Shown here: positions 2,482-20,580 of the stretch, piece after piece | How the letters are laid out: the number at the start of each line of letters is the position of its first letter | How positions within the stretch are numbered: the first letter of the stretch is position 1 | Source of the DNA: a virus | Taxonomy: Duplodnaviria > Heunggongvirae > Uroviricota > Caudoviricetes | IMG/VR virus record: IMGVR_UViG_2648501437_000013 | Direction: 5' to 3' (one strand) | Length of the DNA: 34,339 bases | Made by a program: the position numbers and the translations under genes | The notes under the pieces: generated by a model | The model's input: only the letters and a program-made list of their open reading frames with translations | The model's database searches: none | What the model was told of the DNA's origin: nothing

Positions 2482-3291
2482 TCATCCAATAGTGTACTCC
2501 GCGACAAACTTCTTAACGATCGGTGATTCTTCGTTCAATGTTAGATTTCCACCGTCTCTAACAGCAATTCCTGTAGCTGGAAATACAGCCATCATTTGCC
2601 CAGCCTGAGTTGACGCAGTGTTAAGCGGATACGGTTTTTCTGGATTGCTCATTAAAGCAATCTTAATACTATTACTTGTAGCCTTCTTTTCTGTGAGAAG
2701 GTGTCTCATGGAAATTACCGTGTAAACACTAATATCTGGACCTCCGCTAAACCAATTAAGAAGGTTTAATATCTTATCCTTTGCTTTGACAGGCGCGTTT
2801 TCGTAAGCGTCTAAGAAAATATCTTTTTCTAAGCCTGCTTTATTGAAAAACAAATAATCTTTATCACTTAAAGTAAAACGAGGACCTCTTGCAGTACGAG
2901 CTTTTTTATTTGTATTGCTATCATTTGACTGTTGAACTTTTAATTCATCATTAACCTCAACACACTCTTCAACCTCAATAAATCCCAATTGTTCTGGCTC
3001 GTTTTCGGCAGATTCAACACTTTCAGCCTTAATTACGTTTATAGGCTCATGAGCTAACTCCAACTCATTTAAAGCGGAGCTGAAATCACCTGCTTTTTCT
3101 TCATTGAACAGTTCTTCGGCAACATCATCAGAACTCATGGCTACGCCAGCATCGAGGCCGAGAAGCAGATCGTCAATATCATCAGTATTTTCAACCTGTG
3201 CAGCTTTTTTTACTGGTTCATCAAGTGATTGCAACATGGCTGTCAGCTCATCCAGATCATCATTTGTCATTACATTTTCAACCGAACTCAT
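2482..3291 (-). CDS. Hypothetical protein with acidic N-terminal half (269 aa)
   Basis: Long intact ORF in operon orientation; D/E-rich N-terminus; no recognised catalytic motif. Confidence 0.5.
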   Translation of the reverse strand: MSSVENVMTNDDLDELTAMLQSLDEPVKKAAQVENTDDIDDLLLGLDAGVAMSSDDVAEELFNEEKAGDFSSALNELELAHEPINVIKAESVESAENEPEQLGFIEVEECVEVNDELKVQQSNDSNTNKKARTARGPRFTLSDKDYLFFNKAGLEKDIFLDAYENAPVKAKDKILNLLNWFSGGPDISVYTVISMRHLLTEKKATSNSIKIALMSNPEKPYPLNTASTQAGQMMAVFPATGIAVRDGGNLTLNEESPIVKKFVAEYTIG

Positions 3292-3414: not shown

Positions 3415-3450
3415 AGCCTACTTTAAACTTTTTAAAGTAGGCTTTTGTTT
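3415..3450. terminator. Rho-independent terminator hairpin (AGCCTACTTTAAA / TTTAAAGTAGGCT) with T-run
   Basis: 12-13 bp perfect inverted repeat immediately downstream of the exonuclease stop codon, T-rich on both flanks. Confidence 0.6.
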
Positions 3451-3998
3451 TACACAATTTCAGAGGGTAATTTAAAAAATCCGTACTTATTACGTGCCTT
3501 AAAGAAGCATTGCATCATTAAGTTTGTGTCATATAAGGCACTATGTGCTTTGGCATGATCGTATATAAAGCCAAGAGAGAAGGCCAACTCTTCAAGGCGG
3601 GGACGTTTACCGTCTTCTGTGGCCCACAGGGAAAATAGAGTGTCAATCAATGGGATGTCTGGAAGCGAAAAACCGTAACTTTTCAGCTCATGCCTAATAA
3701 ACGGAATATCGAACGCTTCGCCGTTGTGGGCTATCCAAATATCGGAAGAAGAGAGATACGAAGCGACAGATGAAGCGTGATCGGCTAGTAACGGCTCGGC
3801 GGCTAAATCTTCAAGACTGATGCCGTGTACCGCTTGCGCTTTCGGATCGATACTGCGACGCGGGTTGAACCGCATTACAAAACTATCAACCATTGTCTGT
3901 GTCTCAATTTCGTACTTCACCATTGCGATTTCAATGATTTTATGGCCTGAGAGGAAATCAAGACCTGTTGATTCGATGTCCACCCCTGTAGCAATCAC
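3450..3998 (-). CDS. DnaQ-like DEDDh 3'-5' exonuclease (Pol III epsilon-like proofreading exonuclease)
   Basis: Exo I (VDIESTGL), Exo II (HNGEAFDIPF) and Exo III (HSALYD) motifs in canonical order. Confidence 0.75.
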   Translation of the reverse strand: MIATGVDIESTGLDFLSGHKIIEIAMVKYEIETQTMVDSFVMRFNPRRSIDPKAQAVHGISLEDLAAEPLLADHASSVASYLSSSDIWIAHNGEAFDIPFIRHELKSYGFSLPDIPLIDTLFSLWATEDGKRPRLEELAFSLGFIYDHAKAHSALYDTNLMMQCFFKARNKYGFFKLPSEIV

Positions 3999-13249: not shown

Positions 13250-13993
13250 TTACCATGTTCCCCATATAGGGTTTTCCAATAATCTCGCCTCCAACGAATT
13301 GGCTACTATTGCCGTTTGCAACGTTGGTTGGGGATAGTTTGCAAAGTCTGAATACTCATTTTCCTGCGTGACAAGTTTATCTGCGGCATCTTTAACGCCA
13401 CTTGCTATGAAATGACGCATGATGCCCAACAGCCTCCGACTGTCTGCACTATCGTTTGCTAAAACATGAGGGAGCTGAAGTTCGATTTCTACCATTTCTC
13501 CATACTTACCAACAAACTGTAGTTTGTCCGCACTGTACTTTTTATCCCTCCTTTGGATAAGGAAACCAGTAAAAGCATCACCTGGCGATGCCAAACTATC
13601 CGCCCGCTTATTGGCAAGTCGAATAAGGTTCGTGAAAGCCATACAGAGATGCGCATCCATTGCCCCAAAGAACCCTTCGCTATTAATGTTAAGATCTTCA
13701 GTTTCATGGGTTGCGATAAACCCAGGTCCGACGTTGGGAAGATATCCCCCCTCAACAAAAGGATTAATCAAGATCGGCGCAATACATCCAGACGGCAGTG
13801 ATTCCAAACTTTGCATCAATGGTGTCTCGGATATTAGACCAAGCAACGGGGCGAATTGTGCTTTGTCAATATTATTGCTGCCCCACAGAATACGTGGAGC
13901 CGCACTATTGGAAGTATGCCCATTGATCAGTTTTATCGACTGCATCACTGCAAACACCTGCAAAAACTGCGAGCGGCTTAATTTAAACGACAT
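13250..13993 (-). CDS. Hypothetical protein (247 aa)
   Basis: Intact ORF between sbcC and the resolvase; no recognised motif. Confidence 0.45.
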   Translation of the reverse strand: MSFKLSRSQFLQVFAVMQSIKLINGHTSNSAAPRILWGSNNIDKAQFAPLLGLISETPLMQSLESLPSGCIAPILINPFVEGGYLPNVGPGFIATHETEDLNINSEGFFGAMDAHLCMAFTNLIRLANKRADSLASPGDAFTGFLIQRRDKKYSADKLQFVGKYGEMVEIELQLPHVLANDSADSRRLLGIMRHFIASGVKDAADKLVTQENEYSDFANYPQPTLQTAIVANSLEARLLENPIWGTW

Positions 13994-15899
13994 AGCTGCG
14001 CCCCTCTTTAACTTCCAGCGTAATAGTTTCGCGGAACCATGACTTCATCTCTTTATGGGAGATAATCAGCACAGTGCCCCGTTCGCGAGCTTTGGACTCC
14101 AGAATACCCATGAGGCGTTCAAGACCGGCTGTATCGAGTGCATCGTCAATTTCGTCGCCGATAAACAAATCGATGTTTTTACTCGCCCGGTTACTAACCA
14201 GATCCTGCAATGCCAAAGAACACGCAATGCGAACCTTCCGCTTCTCACCACCAGAGAGGGTCTGGAACGACTTACTTGAACCTTTCTTCTGCACACTAAT
14301 GTTGAATTTGTCGCGATACTCACCTTTTTTAGTGACATCCATCGTCGACCACTCAGCAGTAATATTCCCGTCAGACAACGTATTGAGATACTCGGCTGTG
14401 CGTGTATTCAGGAAAGGCGTAACAGACGTCAAAATATGAGAACGCACCCCGGCAGGAGAGTAGACCTGACGAGCTTTTTCCAATAGCAACGTTTGTTCCT
14501 GAATAGCCTTCAACTCATCTTTTAAGGACTTGAAGGTAGACTTACTGGATACCAGGTTATCTTCGTGTCTGGCGATAAGAGCAATAAACGGATTAATCTC
14601 TTTTGATATACGATCGACCTCAGTACGAGCACGAGTAACAAGAGACTCAATAGCAACAACCTCCTTCTCACGATGACGCAAAGATGAGAGTTGTTTAGTA
14701 AGTTCTTCAATCCGGGCAATGATAGCCGTTACATCAGGTGTCGTTTTAACAAGGGCAGACTCAATGCTTAACGCCTTCTCAAGATTCGTTTTGTGTTTAG
14801 CCATTGCCTCTGCAAGTGTCTTCGCCTGACCAATTTCCTGACGTGCTTGTTCAATGAAATTCTCCTTCACCGTTGATAGATCTTTTTCGCAGTAGGCTTT
14901 GCCACAAGTAGGGCATGGTGATCCTACTTTAGTACCAACCTCTTCTGCTTTGGTCTTAAAATTGCGCGCGCGGCTCATTGCATCAGCCTGACTATTTTCT
15001 GTAGCTTTGATGCTTGCCCGAATATCAGTTATCGCTCCACGCACTTTGAGCAACTTGGCGTCATGTTCTTCTTTTGAGGCTAACTTTTTGCGCTCACTTT
15101 CGATTGCCTTCTCGGTATCACAGATCTGTTCGGGAAGAGTGCGGATCTCAAGTTCAACTTCTGTTAACTCAACTTCGGCACTTGCCAGCCCAGCCAGGGC
15201 ATCGTCATAACGTTTAGAACGCTCTTGTTCCCATGATTCAGAGGAGGCTTTCGCGGACTCAATTTCTGACTGTGTTGCCTCAATGGTCGAGATTGTCGAC
15301 TCCAATTTGGTTTTAACCACGTCCATACGTGCGGCAGCTGCGTTAGCTCGTTCACGAGCAATAGCGTAGGCGCGTGTCAGTCTGTCAACGCCAGCGGCTT
15401 CTTCTACGATGGTTTTGAGGTTTTTGTCGGACATTCCAGGTAGATCTGGCATAGCTTCTTGGCTTGCATAGATGGAAGCCATGAAAACCTCTTTAGATGC
15501 ACCGATCAGACGTTCGACGAACTCTTGCGTCAGCGCATCTTTGCCTTTCGTCATATCGCCGTCTTCACCACGAACGATAAGCCGATTTTTGAACTCTTTG
15601 TGTTTACGGTGACGAATGATCGCATATCTCTTGCCTTCATCCTCGATGGTTACTGCAACACGACAGTTCTTTTCATGGTCGGTAGACAACACATCGTCCC
15701 CCTTCACACCATGAGCTGTTTCACCATAAAGACACCACATCAGGCTATTCATTAGAGTTGACTTTCCAGAGCCATTACTTGATGCGGAACTATCATCACT
15801 ATTAACGCCCTGAATTAACACTAAACCACGCTGATCTAACTCGACCTCCGCGCTGGCGATAGCCATAAAATTCTCAACCTGGAGTTTTAAAAACTTCAT
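13983..15899 (-). CDS. SbcC/Rad50-like recombination ATPase (T4 gp46-like)
   Basis: N-terminal Walker A (NGSGKSTL), central coiled coil with CPTCG zinc hook, C-terminal ABC signature LSGGEKRKV and Walker B LFIGDEIDDALD. Confidence 0.8.
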   Translation of the reverse strand: MKFLKLQVENFMAIASAEVELDQRGLVLIQGVNSDDSSASSNGSGKSTLMNSLMWCLYGETAHGVKGDDVLSTDHEKNCRVAVTIEDEGKRYAIIRHRKHKEFKNRLIVRGEDGDMTKGKDALTQEFVERLIGASKEVFMASIYASQEAMPDLPGMSDKNLKTIVEEAAGVDRLTRAYAIARERANAAAARMDVVKTKLESTISTIEATQSEIESAKASSESWEQERSKRYDDALAGLASAEVELTEVELEIRTLPEQICDTEKAIESERKKLASKEEHDAKLLKVRGAITDIRASIKATENSQADAMSRARNFKTKAEEVGTKVGSPCPTCGKAYCEKDLSTVKENFIEQARQEIGQAKTLAEAMAKHKTNLEKALSIESALVKTTPDVTAIIARIEELTKQLSSLRHREKEVVAIESLVTRARTEVDRISKEINPFIALIARHEDNLVSSKSTFKSLKDELKAIQEQTLLLEKARQVYSPAGVRSHILTSVTPFLNTRTAEYLNTLSDGNITAEWSTMDVTKKGEYRDKFNISVQKKGSSKSFQTLSGGEKRKVRIACSLALQDLVSNRASKNIDLFIGDEIDDALDTAGLERLMGILESKARERGTVLIISHKEMKSWFRETITLEVKEGRSYVV

Positions 15900-16087
15900 A
15901 TAACACCTTTGATACCGTGTGTTAGCTTTTGACCTTCTTTCAATCTGAACTCCGTATGCGCCGGGAAGGATCTGCGCCTCAATACGCCTTTTCTGGTTAA
16001 CCTTCCAAGATAAAACGCTACGGGATTTCCTTGTGGCGGGTAGGGCTTGTGAAACATCACCGTCTGGCCTCGTTCAAGTCTTTTCAT
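15896..16087 (-). CDS. Possible small basic protein (63 aa) between sbcD and sbcC
   Basis: Arg/Lys-rich ORF fills the 229-bp sbcD-sbcC gap; its stop overlaps the sbcC ATG in ATGA configuration; no convincing RBS. Confidence 0.25.
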   Translation of the reverse strand: MKRLERGQTVMFHKPYPPQGNPVAFYLGRLTRKGVLRRRSFPAHTEFRLKEGQKLTHGIKGVI

Positions 16088-16128
16088 CGTGATGGCAAAG
16101 TCTCGAAAGCTCCCATAACGACTTTGCC

Positions 16129-17214
16129 TCACACAGCCTCCGAACTCTCCGCTTCGGTGAGGATTTCCTGACACAAAATATCCAACTTGCTCAGATCAAA
16201 TCCGCCGTCAGTATCGTGGACAATCTTGCAATAAGCAGATACCGACTCTCCCAGGCTATCGATTTTGCTGGTTTCCGTTGTGCTTGCTGTCCCTTCCATC
16301 ATTGATGACTTACGGATGAAGTTGCACACAACACCTTTTGCACCCATTGTTTTGAGGATGTTCTGGTACTTAATGCCTTCTTCGTCGTTCTCGATTACGG
16401 CGCGGAAACGCACGTAGTTGCCGCGAATTTGGTCATCAGCAACATAATCTTCCAGGTTAATGAATTTAGGCGCACTGGTTTCGTAGTGACTGAAACTGCC
16501 GTCCGGGTTTACGATCATGTAACCAGCCAGAGATCCAACATCTCCCCAATTTTGATGGGTCAGTGCACCGACACTGATAACTCCAGGAATGACCTCTTTG
16601 TGGTTGTGGTAATGCCCACTAAGCACGAGACGAAAGCCGATATCCTTTAACTCCTGCGCATCGATACCGACGTCAGGCATTGTTGGAATGGCTTTGTTAA
16701 TGGATGTATGGATAACAACATCATGATTATCACCTTCTACGCTCTTACGTAATGCTTTCAGATCGCTGATAAGCTCTGCATGATTGTTACGCCAGCTAAT
16801 CAGGTGGACAGTCACATCACCAATTTTTATTGAGTGTGGGCGCTTGCCACATACGATTACCACGCCGATAGAACTCAGCGATGCTGCTGCGTTGGCGCTA
16901 TATACTGAATCGTTGGTTTCAAGATCGTGATTACCGGCCAGCATTACTACTGTCAGATCAAGCTCGTTGATAATCCACTTGTACGTTTCAGTTACGTAAT
17001 GCAAAACAGAAGGGGACACAGTTCCTCGGACGTGAAATGTATCACCGGCAACCAACATGTACTTACAACCGGCCTTCTTCATGGCGATGGCTGCTTCTTT
17101 CGTTGCTTCCAACTGTATTTCAAGTCTGGAGTTAAGCCCCTCAGCGTTCGTCGTGGAGAACGCATCCCATTTGTGGTAGTGGCAGTCAGAAATGACGCCG
17201 TATGGCAAAGTCAT
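16129..17214 (-). CDS. SbcD/Mre11-like nuclease (calcineurin-like phosphoesterase)
   Basis: Motifs ISDCHYH, AGDTFH, GNHD, GHYH; start moved from track TTG (17244) to ATG at ~17214 preceded by CCACAAAGGAAAAACAC. Confidence 0.8.
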   Translation of the reverse strand: MTLPYGVISDCHYHKWDAFSTTNAEGLNSRLEIQLEATKEAAIAMKKAGCKYMLVAGDTFHVRGTVSPSVLHYVTETYKWIINELDLTVVMLAGNHDLETNDSVYSANAAASLSSIGVVIVCGKRPHSIKIGDVTVHLISWRNNHAELISDLKALRKSVEGDNHDVVIHTSINKAIPTMPDVGIDAQELKDIGFRLVLSGHYHNHKEVIPGVISVGALTHQNWGDVGSLAGYMIVNPDGSFSHYETSAPKFINLEDYVADDQIRGNYVRFRAVIENDEEGIKYQNILKTMGAKGVVCNFIRKSSMMEGTASTTETSKIDSLGESVSAYCKIVHDTDGGFDLSKLDILCQEILTEAESSEAV

Positions 17215-17324
17215 GTGTTTTTCCTTTGTGGTTATTTGATACAAATCTTAAGCTTGCTCGAGAGGTGAGCAACCAAGACAGCACGGCACAGAAGAACATC
17301 AACAGGCATAGTATTACAAAATAA

Positions 17325-17344
17325 ATAGGTAAGTGAATACCTAC
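17325..17344. promoter_or_regulatory. Palindrome ATAGGTAAGTGAATACCTAC in the divergent AT-rich region upstream of sbcD
   Basis: Arms TAGGTA/TACCTA; same motif family as 2311..2330. Confidence 0.45.
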
Positions 17345-17466
17345 CAAAATTGTTGAATGGATTGCTTACAAGGCGGCTAGAGTTTCATTGAAGTGCTTAG
17401 ATGTATATGGTAGGCAAAAGTCTCATCGTTACATATGAATGAACTATCTCATGGGTCATGTATCAT

Positions 17467-17500
17467 TTGATATTTTTATTATCAACAATTACTGTATAAG
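17467..17500 (+). promoter_or_regulatory. Candidate sigma70-like promoter for the plus-strand 85-aa gene (TTGATA ... TGtATAAG)
   Basis: TTGATA at 17467 and TATAAG at 17495 in an AT-rich tract; spacer is non-optimal, so weak. Confidence 0.25.
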
Positions 17501-17535
17501 AGGAATTTTCCAAATTGAAAAAGGATTGATTATCA

Positions 17536-17793
17536 ATGGCTATTGATGAAAGAAATATTGTTGTTGGTGGATTGTACAAGACCCATACGAATCAAGAACG
17601 GGTCGTTCTAGAAATAAAAGATGATGAAGTGAAATACGCTCCTCGAGGTGGAAATGTAGAAAATAAATTTGACCATATGCAAAAAGCCAAATTGATCACA
17701 TTTGCAGGAGCATGTTCAGAAAAAATTAAAGATTTACCCTCCGATGAATTTAATAAAATTCGACAACTATTTGTGGATAGAAAACTTATTTAA
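17536..17793 (+). CDS. Hypothetical protein (85 aa) in an AT-rich island, opposite orientation to flanking operons
   Basis: ATG preceded by AAGGA RBS; followed by a plus-strand intrinsic terminator; codon composition visibly more AT-rich than neighbours. Confidence 0.55.
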   Translation: MAIDERNIVVGGLYKTHTNQERVVLEIKDDEVKYAPRGGNVENKFDHMQKAKLITFAGACSEKIKDLPSDEFNKIRQLFVDRKLI

Positions 17794-17884
17794 ATAGTTG
17801 TATTAGTTTTGAGGGTTTGTCTCTTAAAGGATTACCATTACTTGGATGAGTAAATTTTAAACAGGAAAAGTTCTAAAAGCCAAT

Positions 17885-17915
17885 GAGCGCCTATGTAACG
17901 AGCGCTCTTTTTTTG
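17885..17915 (+). terminator. Rho-independent terminator (GAGCGC...GCGCTC + T7)
   Basis: 6-bp GC stem, 11-nt loop, TTTTTTT immediately after on the plus strand only. Confidence 0.7.
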
Positions 17916-17940
17916 TTTGTGGATGGGCCTACTAAACCAT

Positions 17941-18594
17941 TTAAATCGTGTCGGAGGGCTTTTTACGCGCGTTACGCGCTGCGTTTATGCTTATGACGCC
18001 AGCTTTTGGACGTGGGTCAACAAGGTTAAGCTCTTCTTCACTGTGGTATTCGAGGTCGAACTCACGTTTTACATGTCTGATGTAGATTGCGGTGAGCAGG
18101 CTATCTTTGGTTAGGAAGTGTCCGTAGGATTTGCGGATCACTTCTTCTACCTTCTCGATTTTCTCACCCCCCATACAGAGATGATTAAACCGGCTGTGTT
18201 TTCGCAACATTTCGTCTACTGGACCTGAGTAAACCTTGTCTACTTTCCCAAAACGGATGATTTTCCCTGTGTCTGCGGATACAAGGCAAATCAGCTTGTC
18301 TGGTGATAAACGATCTCGCCACGTCACACCTGAACGGAGTGTGTTGAAGTAGGGGGCATCCAATCCGATGATCGGTTTACGAAATGCGAGCAATGGAACG
18401 TACCTGATGCAACTGTTTAAATGAAAATTCACACCAGCCTTATCAAGTTTAATTCTGGTTTCGTAGATCGGGCACTTCGCCGCTATACCGCAGATGTCAC
18501 AAAGCAACTTCTGCTTATTCAGGTTGGAATTTGATTCGATAGTGTAGGAGCCGTCTTCAAGACGACGAACCCAGCGCGTGCGTTTTAGATCCAT
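17941..18594 (-). CDS. Hypothetical protein (217 aa), divergent from the replication origin
   Basis: Intact ORF; N-terminal CDICG...C pair; no confident family assignment. Confidence 0.5.
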   Translation of the reverse strand: MDLKRTRWVRRLEDGSYTIESNSNLNKQKLLCDICGIAAKCPIYETRIKLDKAGVNFHLNSCIRYVPLLAFRKPIIGLDAPYFNTLRSGVTWRDRLSPDKLICLVSADTGKIIRFGKVDKVYSGPVDEMLRKHSRFNHLCMGGEKIEKVEEVIRKSYGHFLTKDSLLTAIYIRHVKREFDLEYHSEEELNLVDPRPKAGVISINAARNARKKPSDTI

Positions 18595-18672
18595 ATGTCA
18601 TTTTTCTGTGATTGTTAGCCGAGGCAACGATAACCCACCAGGTGCGCCGAAGGTAGTAAATGCCTGTTTTAA

Positions 18673-18690
18673 TTATTCACATATCCACAG
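18673..18690. promoter_or_regulatory. Two tandem DnaA-box-like 9-mers (TTATTCACA, ATATCCACA)
   Basis: Each matches TTATNCACA at 8/9 positions; located just upstream of the GATC cluster and iterons. Confidence 0.55.
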
Positions 18691-18694
18691 GATA

Positions 18695-18753
18695 GATCCT
18701 AATAAAGAGATCCATAGATAGATCCTTGTATAGATCAAATAAGATCCCCGATC
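18695..18753. promoter_or_regulatory. Cluster of six GATC sites in 59 bp (repeated AGATCC units)
   Basis: GATC at 18695, 18709, 18721, 18733, 18743, 18750; resembles the Dam-methylation-dependent GATC repeats of P1 oriR and oriC. Confidence 0.6.
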
Positions 18754-18793
18754 GCTGTAAGCCGCGCCACGACTGGTCTGAAGCCATGTTCAT

Positions 18794-18895
18794 GTATGCT
18801 ACCAGCGGTAATTGATAGTCTGTCAACGGTTCGCCGTATGCTGCCAACTGTTTTTGGTATGCTGCCAGCGGCAAATCAAGTATGCTGTCAGCGGT
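18794..18895 (+). repeat. Origin-proximal iteron array (about 4 copies of TATGCTGYCAGCGGT, two degenerate)
   Basis: Copies at 18794, 18837 (degenerate), 18858, 18881, directly upstream of the repA start. Confidence 0.75.
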
Positions 18896-18915
18896 TGAAT
18901 GACAAAGGTGTCCAC

Positions 18916-20010
18916 ATGTCCACAAAAAATAAAAAAGGTAAAAATAACAAAGAAGTAGAAGATAATCTCGACAACTTTGAAGAAGGTTCCCTTGAATTGT
19001 ACACAGGGGAACTTGTCCCTAATAGCAACAATACAGTCCAACCAATTGCGTTGATGCGGCTGGGGTTGTTCGTGCCCACGCTCAAGGGGACAAAATACAG
19101 CAAGCGTAACAAGCCAAATGAGATCGATGCTTCAAAGGAGCTTGTTCAGCTCGAAGTAGCCCGTTCTGAAGGTTATTCCGATATCAAGATAACCGGTCCT
19201 CGTCTCGACATGGATCATGATTTCAAAACGTGGGTGGGCGTTGTGCGTTCGCTGGCAGAATACGGCGAACCTAACGGTCGTGTCGAGTTAAGCATCACGA
19301 AATTTGCGAAGTTTTGTGGCTATCCATCGTCACAGATCCGCAAAACACTCCGCGACCGGCTTACAAACAGTCTTTTGAAGATCATGCGTACAACTCTGTC
19401 TTTTCAGAGAACGTATGAAGAAAAGAACGTCGACGGCTCTAACAAGATCTCGCTTCTGATGGTGCACCTCATCAATAGCGTGGACTACAACGAGCAGAAA
19501 GATACGGTGGTGTTCTATGCAGAACCGAAGCTGGCCGAACTATATCGCTTTGACCATAAAGTTCTTTTGCAGTTAAAGGTTATCAATAAGCTACCACGCA
19601 AAGAAACAGCACAGGCTCTGTACACCTTCATCGAAAGTCTTCCAACCAAGCCTGCGCCGGTATCGCTTGCTCGATTACGTGCGCGACTCAATTTGAGTAG
19701 CAGGAATGTCAGCTCGCAGAATCAGACTATACGTAACGGCTTAAAAGCTCTCCAAGATTTGGGCTATCTCGAATACAGCGAGATTAAGCGAGGGCGGTCG
19801 ATCTATATCCAGATTCACAGCCGCAATCCAAAACTCAAAGTCGCACCGCCAAAACCTGAAGACATCGAACCCAAAAAACCAGATGAGAAAGCTGGGGAAA
19901 TTGATGCCAAACAGAACATTATCAACAAGATAACCGAACTTTCGCAGAATTTGACGCCTGAAAATATCAAGATGATTGAGATCCTTTCCAATAGTCTCAA
20001 ACTGCTTTGA
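18916..20010 (+). CDS. repA: Replication initiator RepA (P1 RepA / RepFIB-type)
   Basis: Recalled similarity to P1 RepA (NSNNTVQPIALMRLGLFVP, DIKITGPRLDMDHDFKTW, YTFIESLP, HSRNPKLK); start moved to ATG 18916 (AAAGG RBS) because the track start reads through the iterons. Confidence 0.85.
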   Translation: MSTKNKKGKNNKEVEDNLDNFEEGSLELYTGELVPNSNNTVQPIALMRLGLFVPTLKGTKYSKRNKPNEIDASKELVQLEVARSEGYSDIKITGPRLDMDHDFKTWVGVVRSLAEYGEPNGRVELSITKFAKFCGYPSSQIRKTLRDRLTNSLLKIMRTTLSFQRTYEEKNVDGSNKISLLMVHLINSVDYNEQKDTVVFYAEPKLAELYRFDHKVLLQLKVINKLPRKETAQALYTFIESLPTKPAPVSLARLRARLNLSSRNVSSQNQTIRNGLKALQDLGYLEYSEIKRGRSIYIQIHSRNPKLKVAPPKPEDIEPKKPDEKAGEIDAKQNIINKITELSQNLTPENIKMIEILSNSLKLL

Positions 20011-20542
20011 TATGCTGTCAGCGGTGAAATGTATGCTATCAGCGGCTATTTTTCTGAAAAGTATGCTGTGAACGGTTAAAGATATGCTACCAGCGGTATA
20101 GTGAGATAAACGTATGCTGTGAGCGGTAAATCATCTATCACCACTCAATGCTCTGGCATACCTCCCCAGTGGTTACTAACCTCGAAGAGTGCATTCCATA
20201 TAGGTTTGCGCTCACTAACATTCTATTGCCGTTGCGCTGATTGCTTGTAGTGAAAGGCATTTATTGCCTGCTGCTCCCTGATAGAACGTATGCTGTCAGC
20301 GGTGTTTTATTGAGGAATTTTTGTTTGGATATGCTATCAGCGGTAATTAATGGTATATGTCAGACCTTCGTATGCTGCCAGCGGTAATTTTGTTCTGGTT
20401 ATACCCATACCGGTACACATTATTCATGCAATGTCTTAAGTATGCTGTCAGCGGTAAAAAATCGAGTAAAGTATGCTGTGAGCGGTGAGATAAACTCTCG
20501 ATATGCTATCAGCGGTAATTGATTGTGTATGCTGTCAGCGGT
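20011..20542 (+). repeat. Downstream iteron array, 12 copies of TATGCT(G/A)(T/C)(C/G)A(G/A)CGG(T/C) in two groups (5 + 7) separated by a ~160-bp spacer
   Basis: Copies at 20011, 20032, 20062, 20083, 20113, 20289, 20330, 20371, 20441, 20472, 20503, 20528, all in the same orientation; position matches a P1 incA-like copy-control locus. Confidence 0.8.
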
Positions 20543-20558
20543 GACGACTATGAAATAT

Positions 20559-20580
20559 GACTGCGGCACGTGCCGCAGTC
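20559..20580. terminator. Perfect 22-bp palindrome GACTGCGGCACGTGCCGCAGTC
   Basis: Read directly; sits between the iteron array and the stop of minus gene 20590..20802; no strong T-run, so it may be a protein-binding site rather than a terminator. Confidence 0.4.

Follow-up and report, generated by a model that had tools for sequence, protein, structure and literature searches.

The 34,339-nucleotide viral sequence IMGVR_UViG_2648501437_000013, referred to here as the window, carries an AT-rich cassette with a single 85-amino-acid gene, ORF85, between an SbcD-like metallophosphoesterase gene and an ASCH-like gene. The cassette is very probably an autonomous accessory unit, or moron, lodged in an SSU5-like phage-plasmid at a slot whose content is exchangeable. 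The window is assigned to this group of elements, as part of an SSU5-like phage-plasmid of Escherichia coli, on the strength of the best megablast matches of positions 16000-19500, which are the Escherichia phages PhiR41_1 (98.5%), CMS-2020a and Cyrano, followed at a greater distance by Salmonella phage SSU5. Phage-plasmids of the SSU5 type occur commonly in E. coli, Shigella, Salmonella Typhi and Yersinia pestis, and little of their accessory gene content has been charted.

Comparison of the window with its relatives indicates that the cassette came by horizontal transfer from a source richer in A and T, that it is rare and polymorphic among relatives, and that ORF85 is a real gene under purifying selection. 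The alignments further delimit a unit of about 355 bp (17455-17810), consisting of promoter, leader and ORF, that is common to different backbones and recurs where P2-like and lambdoid prophages carry cargo. An earlier sequence-only reading of the window had proposed horizontally acquired cargo of the moron type, and this proposal is upheld by the foreign composition of the gene, its presence in one of 463 related plasmids, the other cargo found in the slot and the recurrence of gene and leader in unrelated temperate phages.

Composition and borders of the cassette

The GC content of the window, on average 0.462, reaches its minimum of 0.313 at 17401-17800 (400-nt windows). The lowest-GC stretch of 590 nt in the 34-kb window begins at 17288, and the AT content of 17344-17935 is matched by only 0.3% of 590-nt windows. 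The dip that the sequence-only reading had placed at 17245-17930 is thus real; its bounds have to be moved, since the variable part extends from about 17344 to 17940 and 17215-17343 is backbone. ORF85 itself has a GC content of 0.329 (z = -4.9) and a GC content at third codon positions (GC3) of 0.209 (z = -5.4), the reference being the 35 other window genes compared (mean 0.466; standard deviation 0.028 for GC and 0.048 for GC3). It lies outside their range, below every one of them. Its self-referenced codon adaptation index is mildly low (z = -1.3), so that the different codon usage claimed together with the low GC is essentially a bias towards A and T at third positions.

The left border is set by the backbone. 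Segment 17215-17343 aligns at 72-82% among the window, SSU5, E. coli plasmids (loci L011/L012) and a metagenomic relative (L006). Against PhiR41_1, local BLAST covers the first ~39 nt only (95%) and the global alignment continues to ~17343, where homology to alleles without ORF85 also ends. The promoter of the SbcD-like gene presumably lies within this segment. At its end stands a terminator-like hairpin on the minus strand (17328-17345), with a folding energy of -7.9 kcal/mol (z = -3.6; none of 200 shuffles folds as well), which is kept in PhiR41_1, Cyrano and L006. From the alignments, this hairpin is the left junction of the cassette.

The right border falls at the neighbouring gene. The ASCH-like protein is 97% identical to its PhiR41_1 homologue over the full length, with three amino acids inserted near the C-terminus; because it is intact to its last residues, the right junction is placed at its stop codon. 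As aligned here, the slot is therefore delimited by the ASCH-like stop codon and the backbone hairpin upstream of sbcD. At finer scale, the ASCH-like gene differs from that of PhiR41_1 by a 9-nt insertion at 17959-17967 (minus strand), which adds three residues (~206-208), and its last four residues read SDTI in the window and TDAL in PhiR41_1. These two differences suggest that the cassette recombination junction lies inside the final codons of the gene.

Alleles of the slot

The cassette stands where the common 'empty' allele has ~120 bp of unrelated spacer. In this allele, seen in PhiR41_1 and Cyrano, about 254 bp without ORF85 separate sbcD from the ASCH-like gene. The sequence-only reading had called for a check of presence/absence polymorphism, and such polymorphism exists. 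A PLSDB query comprising sbcD, the island and ASCH had matches in 463 plasmids (≥95% identity in 189), and a single one (pEC00678_4) has the cassette. It is absent from all six matching phage records, PhiR41_1, Cyrano, CMS-2020a and SSU5 included, and from all 5,426 complete RefSeq E. coli genomes. The sbcD-to-ASCH interval query spans 1985 bp in nearly all other close relatives, compared to 2466 in the window. On an IMG/VR contig (L024), the proteins encoded by ORF85, by the ASCH-like gene and by every gene after it are 100% identical to those of the window, and SbcC and SbcD are 99.4-99.7% identical.

Other relatives carry different cargo. In SSU5 (L003 4205-5540), the slot holds a gene for a 167-aa protein with a lipoprotein-type N-terminus, SSU5_072, followed by a GNAT acetyltransferase gene. 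At least six E. coli plasmids (L011/L012 1587-2866) have the same 167-aa gene with SSU5-type DNA after it, 88% identical across the slot; their records list no GNAT gene. Two metagenomic relatives, L005 and L006, contain an ORF85 homologue of 76% identity. In L006 (2901-3967) this homologue is followed by an extra plus-strand gene of 94 aa (ORF 3548-3832, MTEITSLKINDQPF...), without Pfam match, and then by the same terminator as in the window. Apart from itself, the 94-aa protein has no homologue among 5.8 billion proteins, nor in any other locus fetched.

The aligned loci thus present at least four alleles: the empty one of ~254 bp, ORF85, an ORF85 homologue with the orphan 94-aa gene, and the 167-aa lipoprotein-like gene with GNAT. 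In this respect the SbcD/ASCH interval resembles a small hotspot for cargo in SSU5-like phage-plasmids. No mention of this slot or of the ORF85 gene was found in the papers searched on SSU5 phage-plasmids and P2/P4 hotspots.

Signals for expression of ORF85

As the sequence-only reading had it, the plus-strand ORF of 85 aa is the only gene in the island. No second ORF of at least 36 aa exists there, and most of the shorter ones (≤35 aa) overlap with ORF85 or with its start, with no conservation found for any of them. An upstream ORF of 35 aa (17439-17546) was discarded as a gene because its frame is not kept in L006. ORF85 was also said to run opposite to all flanking operons, which is true of its immediate neighbours and not of repA, also on the plus strand.

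The AAGGA ribosome-binding site noted earlier is in place, and six homologous cassettes have the block GGATTGATTA unchanged directly 5' of the ATG. Further upstream, the AT-rich promoter-like region contains a putative sigma-70 promoter, TTGATA-17-TACTGT, which is conserved in homologues. A TAnnnT hexamer is kept at the -10 column in all six aligned cassettes, and the aligned site of L006 (TTGATA-16-TACCAT) passes the promoter scan. Upstream of 17455, identity to P2-like cassettes is 0.33-0.41; it increases to 0.60-0.64 in 17455-17499 and to 0.72 in 17500-17535. DNA homology across backbones covers ~17455-17810, with 0.66-0.71 in the ORF, 0.60-0.72 in the last 80 nt of the leader and 0.3-0.4 outside. 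Operator-like palindromes in this region, TTGATATTTTTATTATCAA (17467-17485) and TTGATTATCAA (17526-17536), were dropped as conserved operators, as they are not kept in P2-like cassettes. Neither an Rfam match (16900-18900 scanned) nor tandem repeats in the leader (repeat search) were found, which makes type I and type III toxin-antitoxin layouts unlikely.

Downstream, the intrinsic terminator described earlier consists of a hairpin and a T7 tract with a folding energy of -10.3 kcal/mol (z = -2.5); 2 of 200 shuffles fold as well. The epithet 'clean' was slightly generous. The consensus scan missed it because its 11-nt loop exceeds the limit of 8 nt. The stem is preserved in L006, and P2-like copies end in a different, stronger terminator, AAAGCCCCGCAATTGCGGGGCTTT. 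Viewed from the minus strand, only AUUGGCUUUUAG follows the stem. For this reason, transcripts of the ASCH-like gene may run antisense through the cassette up to the backbone hairpin at 17328-17345, a possible source of transcriptional interference.

Homologues on other mobile elements

Homologues of ORF85 are found on elements otherwise unrelated to the window. At four IMG/VR loci (L025, L026, L028 and L029) they are 55-61% identical, no other protein is shared with the window, and the genes alongside belong to P2-like prophages, namely ogr, gpD, gpU and the tape-measure gene. In the P2-like prophage of E. coli EC11, the homologue (WP_052318364.1, hypothetical) has the host yegQ junction on one side and ogr on the other. 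This P2-like version of the gene occurs in one of 5,426 E. coli genomes. In a lambdoid region (L027), a homologue of 63% identity follows the genes for antiterminator Q and an XRE-M78 peptidase, and one of 47% identity resides on the Acinetobacter radioresistens plasmid pARA1, beside parAB and an integrase gene. In every case the GC content of the homologue is well below that of its locus (e.g. 0.38 vs 0.52-0.54), a contrast seen in five other host elements.

These contexts have no neighbour gene in common; those seen include BACON/Laminin_G, DUF6308 with CHAT-TPR, TM2/DUF4352, TctC, XRE-M78, ogr and integrase. A profile search of genome contigs with a five-sequence sub-alignment returned one partial match, in a Desulfobacteraceae metagenome-assembled genome. 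The sequence-only reading had also set the island beside the replication origin, which is approximately correct: the nearest iteron cluster begins at 18774, ~850 bp away, with the ASCH-like gene between. The P2-like and lambdoid homologues are not near origins, and this proximity is therefore without demonstrated meaning.

Two further loci show arrangements of their own. On a metagenomic contig of 41% GC (L018 245-4642), a distant family member (P0016) lies in a tight operon, followed by a 201-aa protein that weakly matches DUF6308 and by a TPR-CHAT protease-like protein of 1141 aa, an arrangement that resembles conflict systems. In E. coli EC11 (L031 3555-4149), a ParD/ParE type II toxin-antitoxin pair is encoded immediately upstream of yegQ, adjoining the P2-like prophage with the homologue; this pair is probably an unrelated host context.

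The protein family and its predicted fold

ORF85 is annotated at NCBI as WP_021512298.1. Among six sequences, dN/dS is 0.13-0.41 (Nei-Gojobori), with synonymous differences of up to 0.59 per site. A word-indexed search of 5.8 billion proteins returned three clusters only, and an exhaustive HMMER search collected 23 family representatives at E<1e-3, nearly all of them small proteins. One 559-aa repeat protein, which matches residues 40-63 only, was left out as spurious. The family motif is G..Y.T..NQER.V..I...V.Y.SRGGNV.N...FA.AC. Residues Q20, R22 and F56 are invariant, and G11, T16, V32, Y34, N43 and C60 are nearly so. In PHROGs there is a weak match only, to phrog_7089 (E 0.036; 3 of 23 members), whose function is unknown, and a sequence search of the PDB with the family profile gave nothing below E 0.3.

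AlphaFold2 modelling on the shallow family alignment yielded a pLDDT of 90.4 and a pTM of 0.79. The model has strands at 12-16, 20-28, 31-38, 49-52 and 60-66, a short helix at 53-59 and a C-terminal helix at 69-81. ORF85 is thus confidently predicted to be a soluble protein with a five-stranded SH3-like beta-barrel capped by the C-terminal helix. The nearest solved structural neighbours of the model are MazF/Kid/CcdB toxins. Foldseek independently ranks Bacillus subtilis MazF (E 0.01, TM 0.63) and MazF-mt9 of Mycobacterium tuberculosis first, and in BFVD finds nothing below E 5e-3. In sequence, the relationship to MazF was rejected at an hhalign probability of 0.3%, and none of the 23 members matches the Pfam families PemK (PF02452) or CcdB at E≤1. 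Since Foldseek places MazF first while hhalign gives so low a value, the modelled fold is best described as MazF/CcdB-like in topology, and the protein is not assigned to that family.

The conserved polar residues fall in the beta1-beta2 turn and start of beta2 (T16, N19-Q20-E21-R22) and in the loop after beta3 (R37-G38-G39-N40, N43). Presumably these are also the topological positions of the catalytic R29 and T52 in E. coli MazF, a match that serves as a lead only.

A possible role in conflicts between mobile elements

According to the favoured explanation, a weak sigma-70 promoter belonging to the cassette would drive ORF85 without dependence on the phage operons of the minus strand. Its transcription would converge with that of the ASCH-like gene, diverge from that of sbcD and end at its own terminator. 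Because ORF85 would use this promoter instead of the phage operons, it would probably be expressed in the plasmid (lysogenic) state. As no partner gene is conserved, the protein may be expected to work alone. It would act as a small cytoplasmic binding protein that recognises its target via the conserved polar patch. This binding mechanism is tentative and on balance doubtful; the explanation as a whole, in which the cassette and the mechanism are blended, is held with moderate confidence.

Single-gene cargo common to several temperate-phage types often serves mobile-element competition, and genes with such a distribution have often proved to be exclusion, anti-defence or host-modulating factors. 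By this analogy, the preferred role for ORF85, possible at well short of even chances, would be in mobile-element conflict (phage exclusion or counter-defence) by binding an RNA or protein partner. The immunity or anti-defence role raised in the sequence-only reading is speculation. Host modulation and self-regulation are the alternatives.

Several observations weigh against this explanation. The putative promoter fits the consensus at 8 of 12 positions, and the window site is below the threshold of the consensus scan, which called no plus-strand promoter in the window. No match to ORF85 or to any other member of its family is given by PADLOC (PADLOC-DB v2, E≤1 for ORF85), Pfam or NCBIfam, hence no tie to defence or counter-defence. 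The isoelectric points of the family range from 4.4 to 10.3, so that net charge varies widely, which argues against a generic nucleic-acid-binding surface. The hhalign probability of 0.3% was obtained against an alignment of MazF, Kid, ChpBK and EndoA reference sequences. Lastly, the clustering of the conserved residues was read from the secondary-structure string of the model and not from its coordinates.

The results define an exchangeable slot between sbcD and the ASCH-like gene, and a small protein family, unannotated in any library, that unrelated temperate phages have repeatedly acquired as cargo of one gene. With its 85 aa and a confident predicted model, the protein should be cheap to test.

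Alternative explanations

The structural neighbours of the model raise the question of whether ORF85 is a solitary effector of the MazF/CcdB superfamily, namely a mini endoribonuclease or gyrase-poison-like toxin tolerated without antitoxin, or a decoy that titrates MazE/PemI/CcdA-type antitoxins. This would be unlikely. Neither hhalign nor Pfam, as given above, links the family to MazF/PemK or CcdB; no antitoxin-like neighbour is present in at least eight contexts; and no upstream tandem repeats are available to serve as a type III RNA antitoxin in the layout of ToxIN/CptIN. Compared with MazF, the predicted protein is smaller by ~25 residues and its beta1-beta2 loop is much reduced, and a lone active toxin would not be inherited stably. 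A bolder extension, no more probable, would see a family of miniaturised, antitoxin-less MazF/CcdB-fold morons in SSU5-like, P2-like and lambdoid phages and in plasmids, each acting in conflicts between elements as a narrowly targeted RNA-binding or RNA-cleaving exclusion factor or as a toxin-shaped decoy disarming the toxin-antitoxin-based abortive infection of the host, with the SbcD/ASCH slot as an undescribed hotspot.

The L006 allele invites the reading that ORF85 is what remains of a module of two genes, such as an antitoxin or immunity gene orphaned by deletion of its partner, with L006 as the intact form. There, a second plus-strand ORF does lie between the homologue and the shared terminator, and the window differs from L006 by a clean indel of ~350 bp at 17809-17825. 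This explanation is improbable, as the second gene lacks homologues elsewhere, the homologues of ORF85 stand alone in P2-like, lambdoid, Acinetobacter and metagenomic contexts, and ORF85 alone is still under purifying selection. Gain of the gene is more parsimonious, and most likely L006 gained gene 2 rather than the window losing half of a module. Less probable still is a backbone function in replication or maintenance, such as that of a copy-number or partition regulator. ORF85 is one gene away from the repA iterons and its Acinetobacter homologue is downstream of parAB; nevertheless, ~99% of close relatives replicate without it, homologues reside in integrated P2-like and lambdoid prophages far from any plasmid origin, and its composition is foreign to the backbone. 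The least credible proposal takes ORF85 for a chance open frame in an AT-rich spacer of merely regulatory or structural significance. GC-rich codons are scarce in AT-rich DNA, where short open frames readily form, and the consensus scan called no promoter. Set against this are the low dN/dS with pS of up to 0.59, the 23 family representatives with invariant residues, an AlphaFold2 pLDDT of 90 from a shallow alignment and the NCBI record, by which the proposal is effectively refuted already.

Neighbouring genes and other features

The features of the cassette and its surroundings are collected in Table 1. The SbcD-like gene has 98-99% identity in close relatives, where it is labelled exonuclease or SbcD. 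The ASCH-like neighbour matched no family of PADLOC-DB v2 at E≤1.

Table 1. Coordinates of the cassette, its signals and the surrounding genes in the window.
Feature	Position	Strand	Basis or remark
SbcC-like gene	13983-15899	minus	
SbcD-like metallophosphoesterase gene; conserved backbone, left flank	16129-17214	minus	Pfam Metallophos, E=8e-10
Backbone intergenic segment, common to all slot alleles	17215-17343	none	Outside the mobile cargo
Backbone terminator-like hairpin GGTAGGTATTCACTTACC with T-rich tail TATTTATTTT; left slot edge	17328-17345	minus	Terminator scan
Variable cassette (the true island)	17344-17940	none	Alignment with PhiR41_1 and Cyrano; GC 0.333
Promoter and leader moving with the gene across phage backbones	17455-17535	plus	Identity to P2-like cassettes
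Putative sigma-70 promoter: -35 TTGATA (17467-17472), 17-nt spacer, -10 TACTGT (17490-17495)	17467-17495	plus	
Shine-Dalgarno sequence AAGGA	17521-17525	plus	10 nt upstream of ATG
ORF85, 85 aa, ATG start	17536-17793	plus	
Indel junction relative to L006	17809-17825	none	BLASTN block structure and alignment; L006 has an extra ~366 bp including the 94-aa orphan gene
Intrinsic terminator: stem GAGCGC/GCGCTC (6-7 bp, GC-rich), 11-nt loop, T7	17885-17907 (T7 17908-17914)	plus	
ASCH-like backbone gene; right flank, convergent with ORF85	17941-18594	minus	phrog_2105, E=4e-131
repA (Rep3)	18916-20010	plus	

A repeat search located iterons TATGCTGYCAGCGGT on both sides of repA, with ~5 copies at 18774-18915 and ~12 copies at 20011-20562. 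Because the longest repA ORF (start 18796) has a 5' extension that runs into the upstream set, the true start of repA is probably 18916, giving 364 aa as annotated in PhiR41_1.

Elsewhere in the window, a 269-aa gene at 2482-3291 (minus strand) is the second most AT-rich, with a GC content of 0.39 and a GC3 of 0.31, and has no Pfam match. It sits between genes for a Dam-like methyltransferase (1706-2299) and an RNase T-like exonuclease (3450-3998), and may be another acquired cargo gene.

Comparison with known systems

Among small barrel proteins, the SH3-like, Tudor, KOW, FeoA, DUF1653 and KTSC families differ from ORF85 in that their structural matches span 46-60 residues only and do not include the C-terminal helix; no sequence relationship between them and the ORF85 family was detected. 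Compared to the MazF/PemK(Kid)/CcdB superfamily, ORF85 is set apart by its smaller size and shorter beta1-beta2 loop, by the lack of sequence-profile similarity and of an adjacent antitoxin, and by its stable inheritance as a single gene.

The slot resembles the hotspots of P2-like phages (PMC9122126), being small, placed between two conserved genes and subject to turnover of unrelated cassettes. In contrast to these, it is situated on an SSU5-like phage-plasmid, and none of its alleles matches a known defence system. Turnover looks low, since by far the most close relatives have the empty allele. The hotspot described in P2 is gpA-gpQ (PMC9122126), whereas the P2-like homologue of ORF85 is found at the ogr-attachment end. 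No hotspot definition was found in the 2026 NAR follow-up (PMC13586616).

In temperate phages, morons are autonomous units of promoter, gene and terminator that have been inserted among the backbone genes (concept as cited in PMC9122126). The ORF85 family differs from them in having no known lysogenic-conversion function, and both expression and benefit to the host are putative here. Like a moron, ORF85 is a single gene opposite to its neighbours, equipped with a promoter-like element, a ribosome-binding site and a terminator; its GC content is far below that of the backbone; and it is missing from most relatives and stands between two conserved genes. This is the architecture of a textbook moron, which adds one more uncharacterised moron, from an unstudied protein family, without introducing a new principle.

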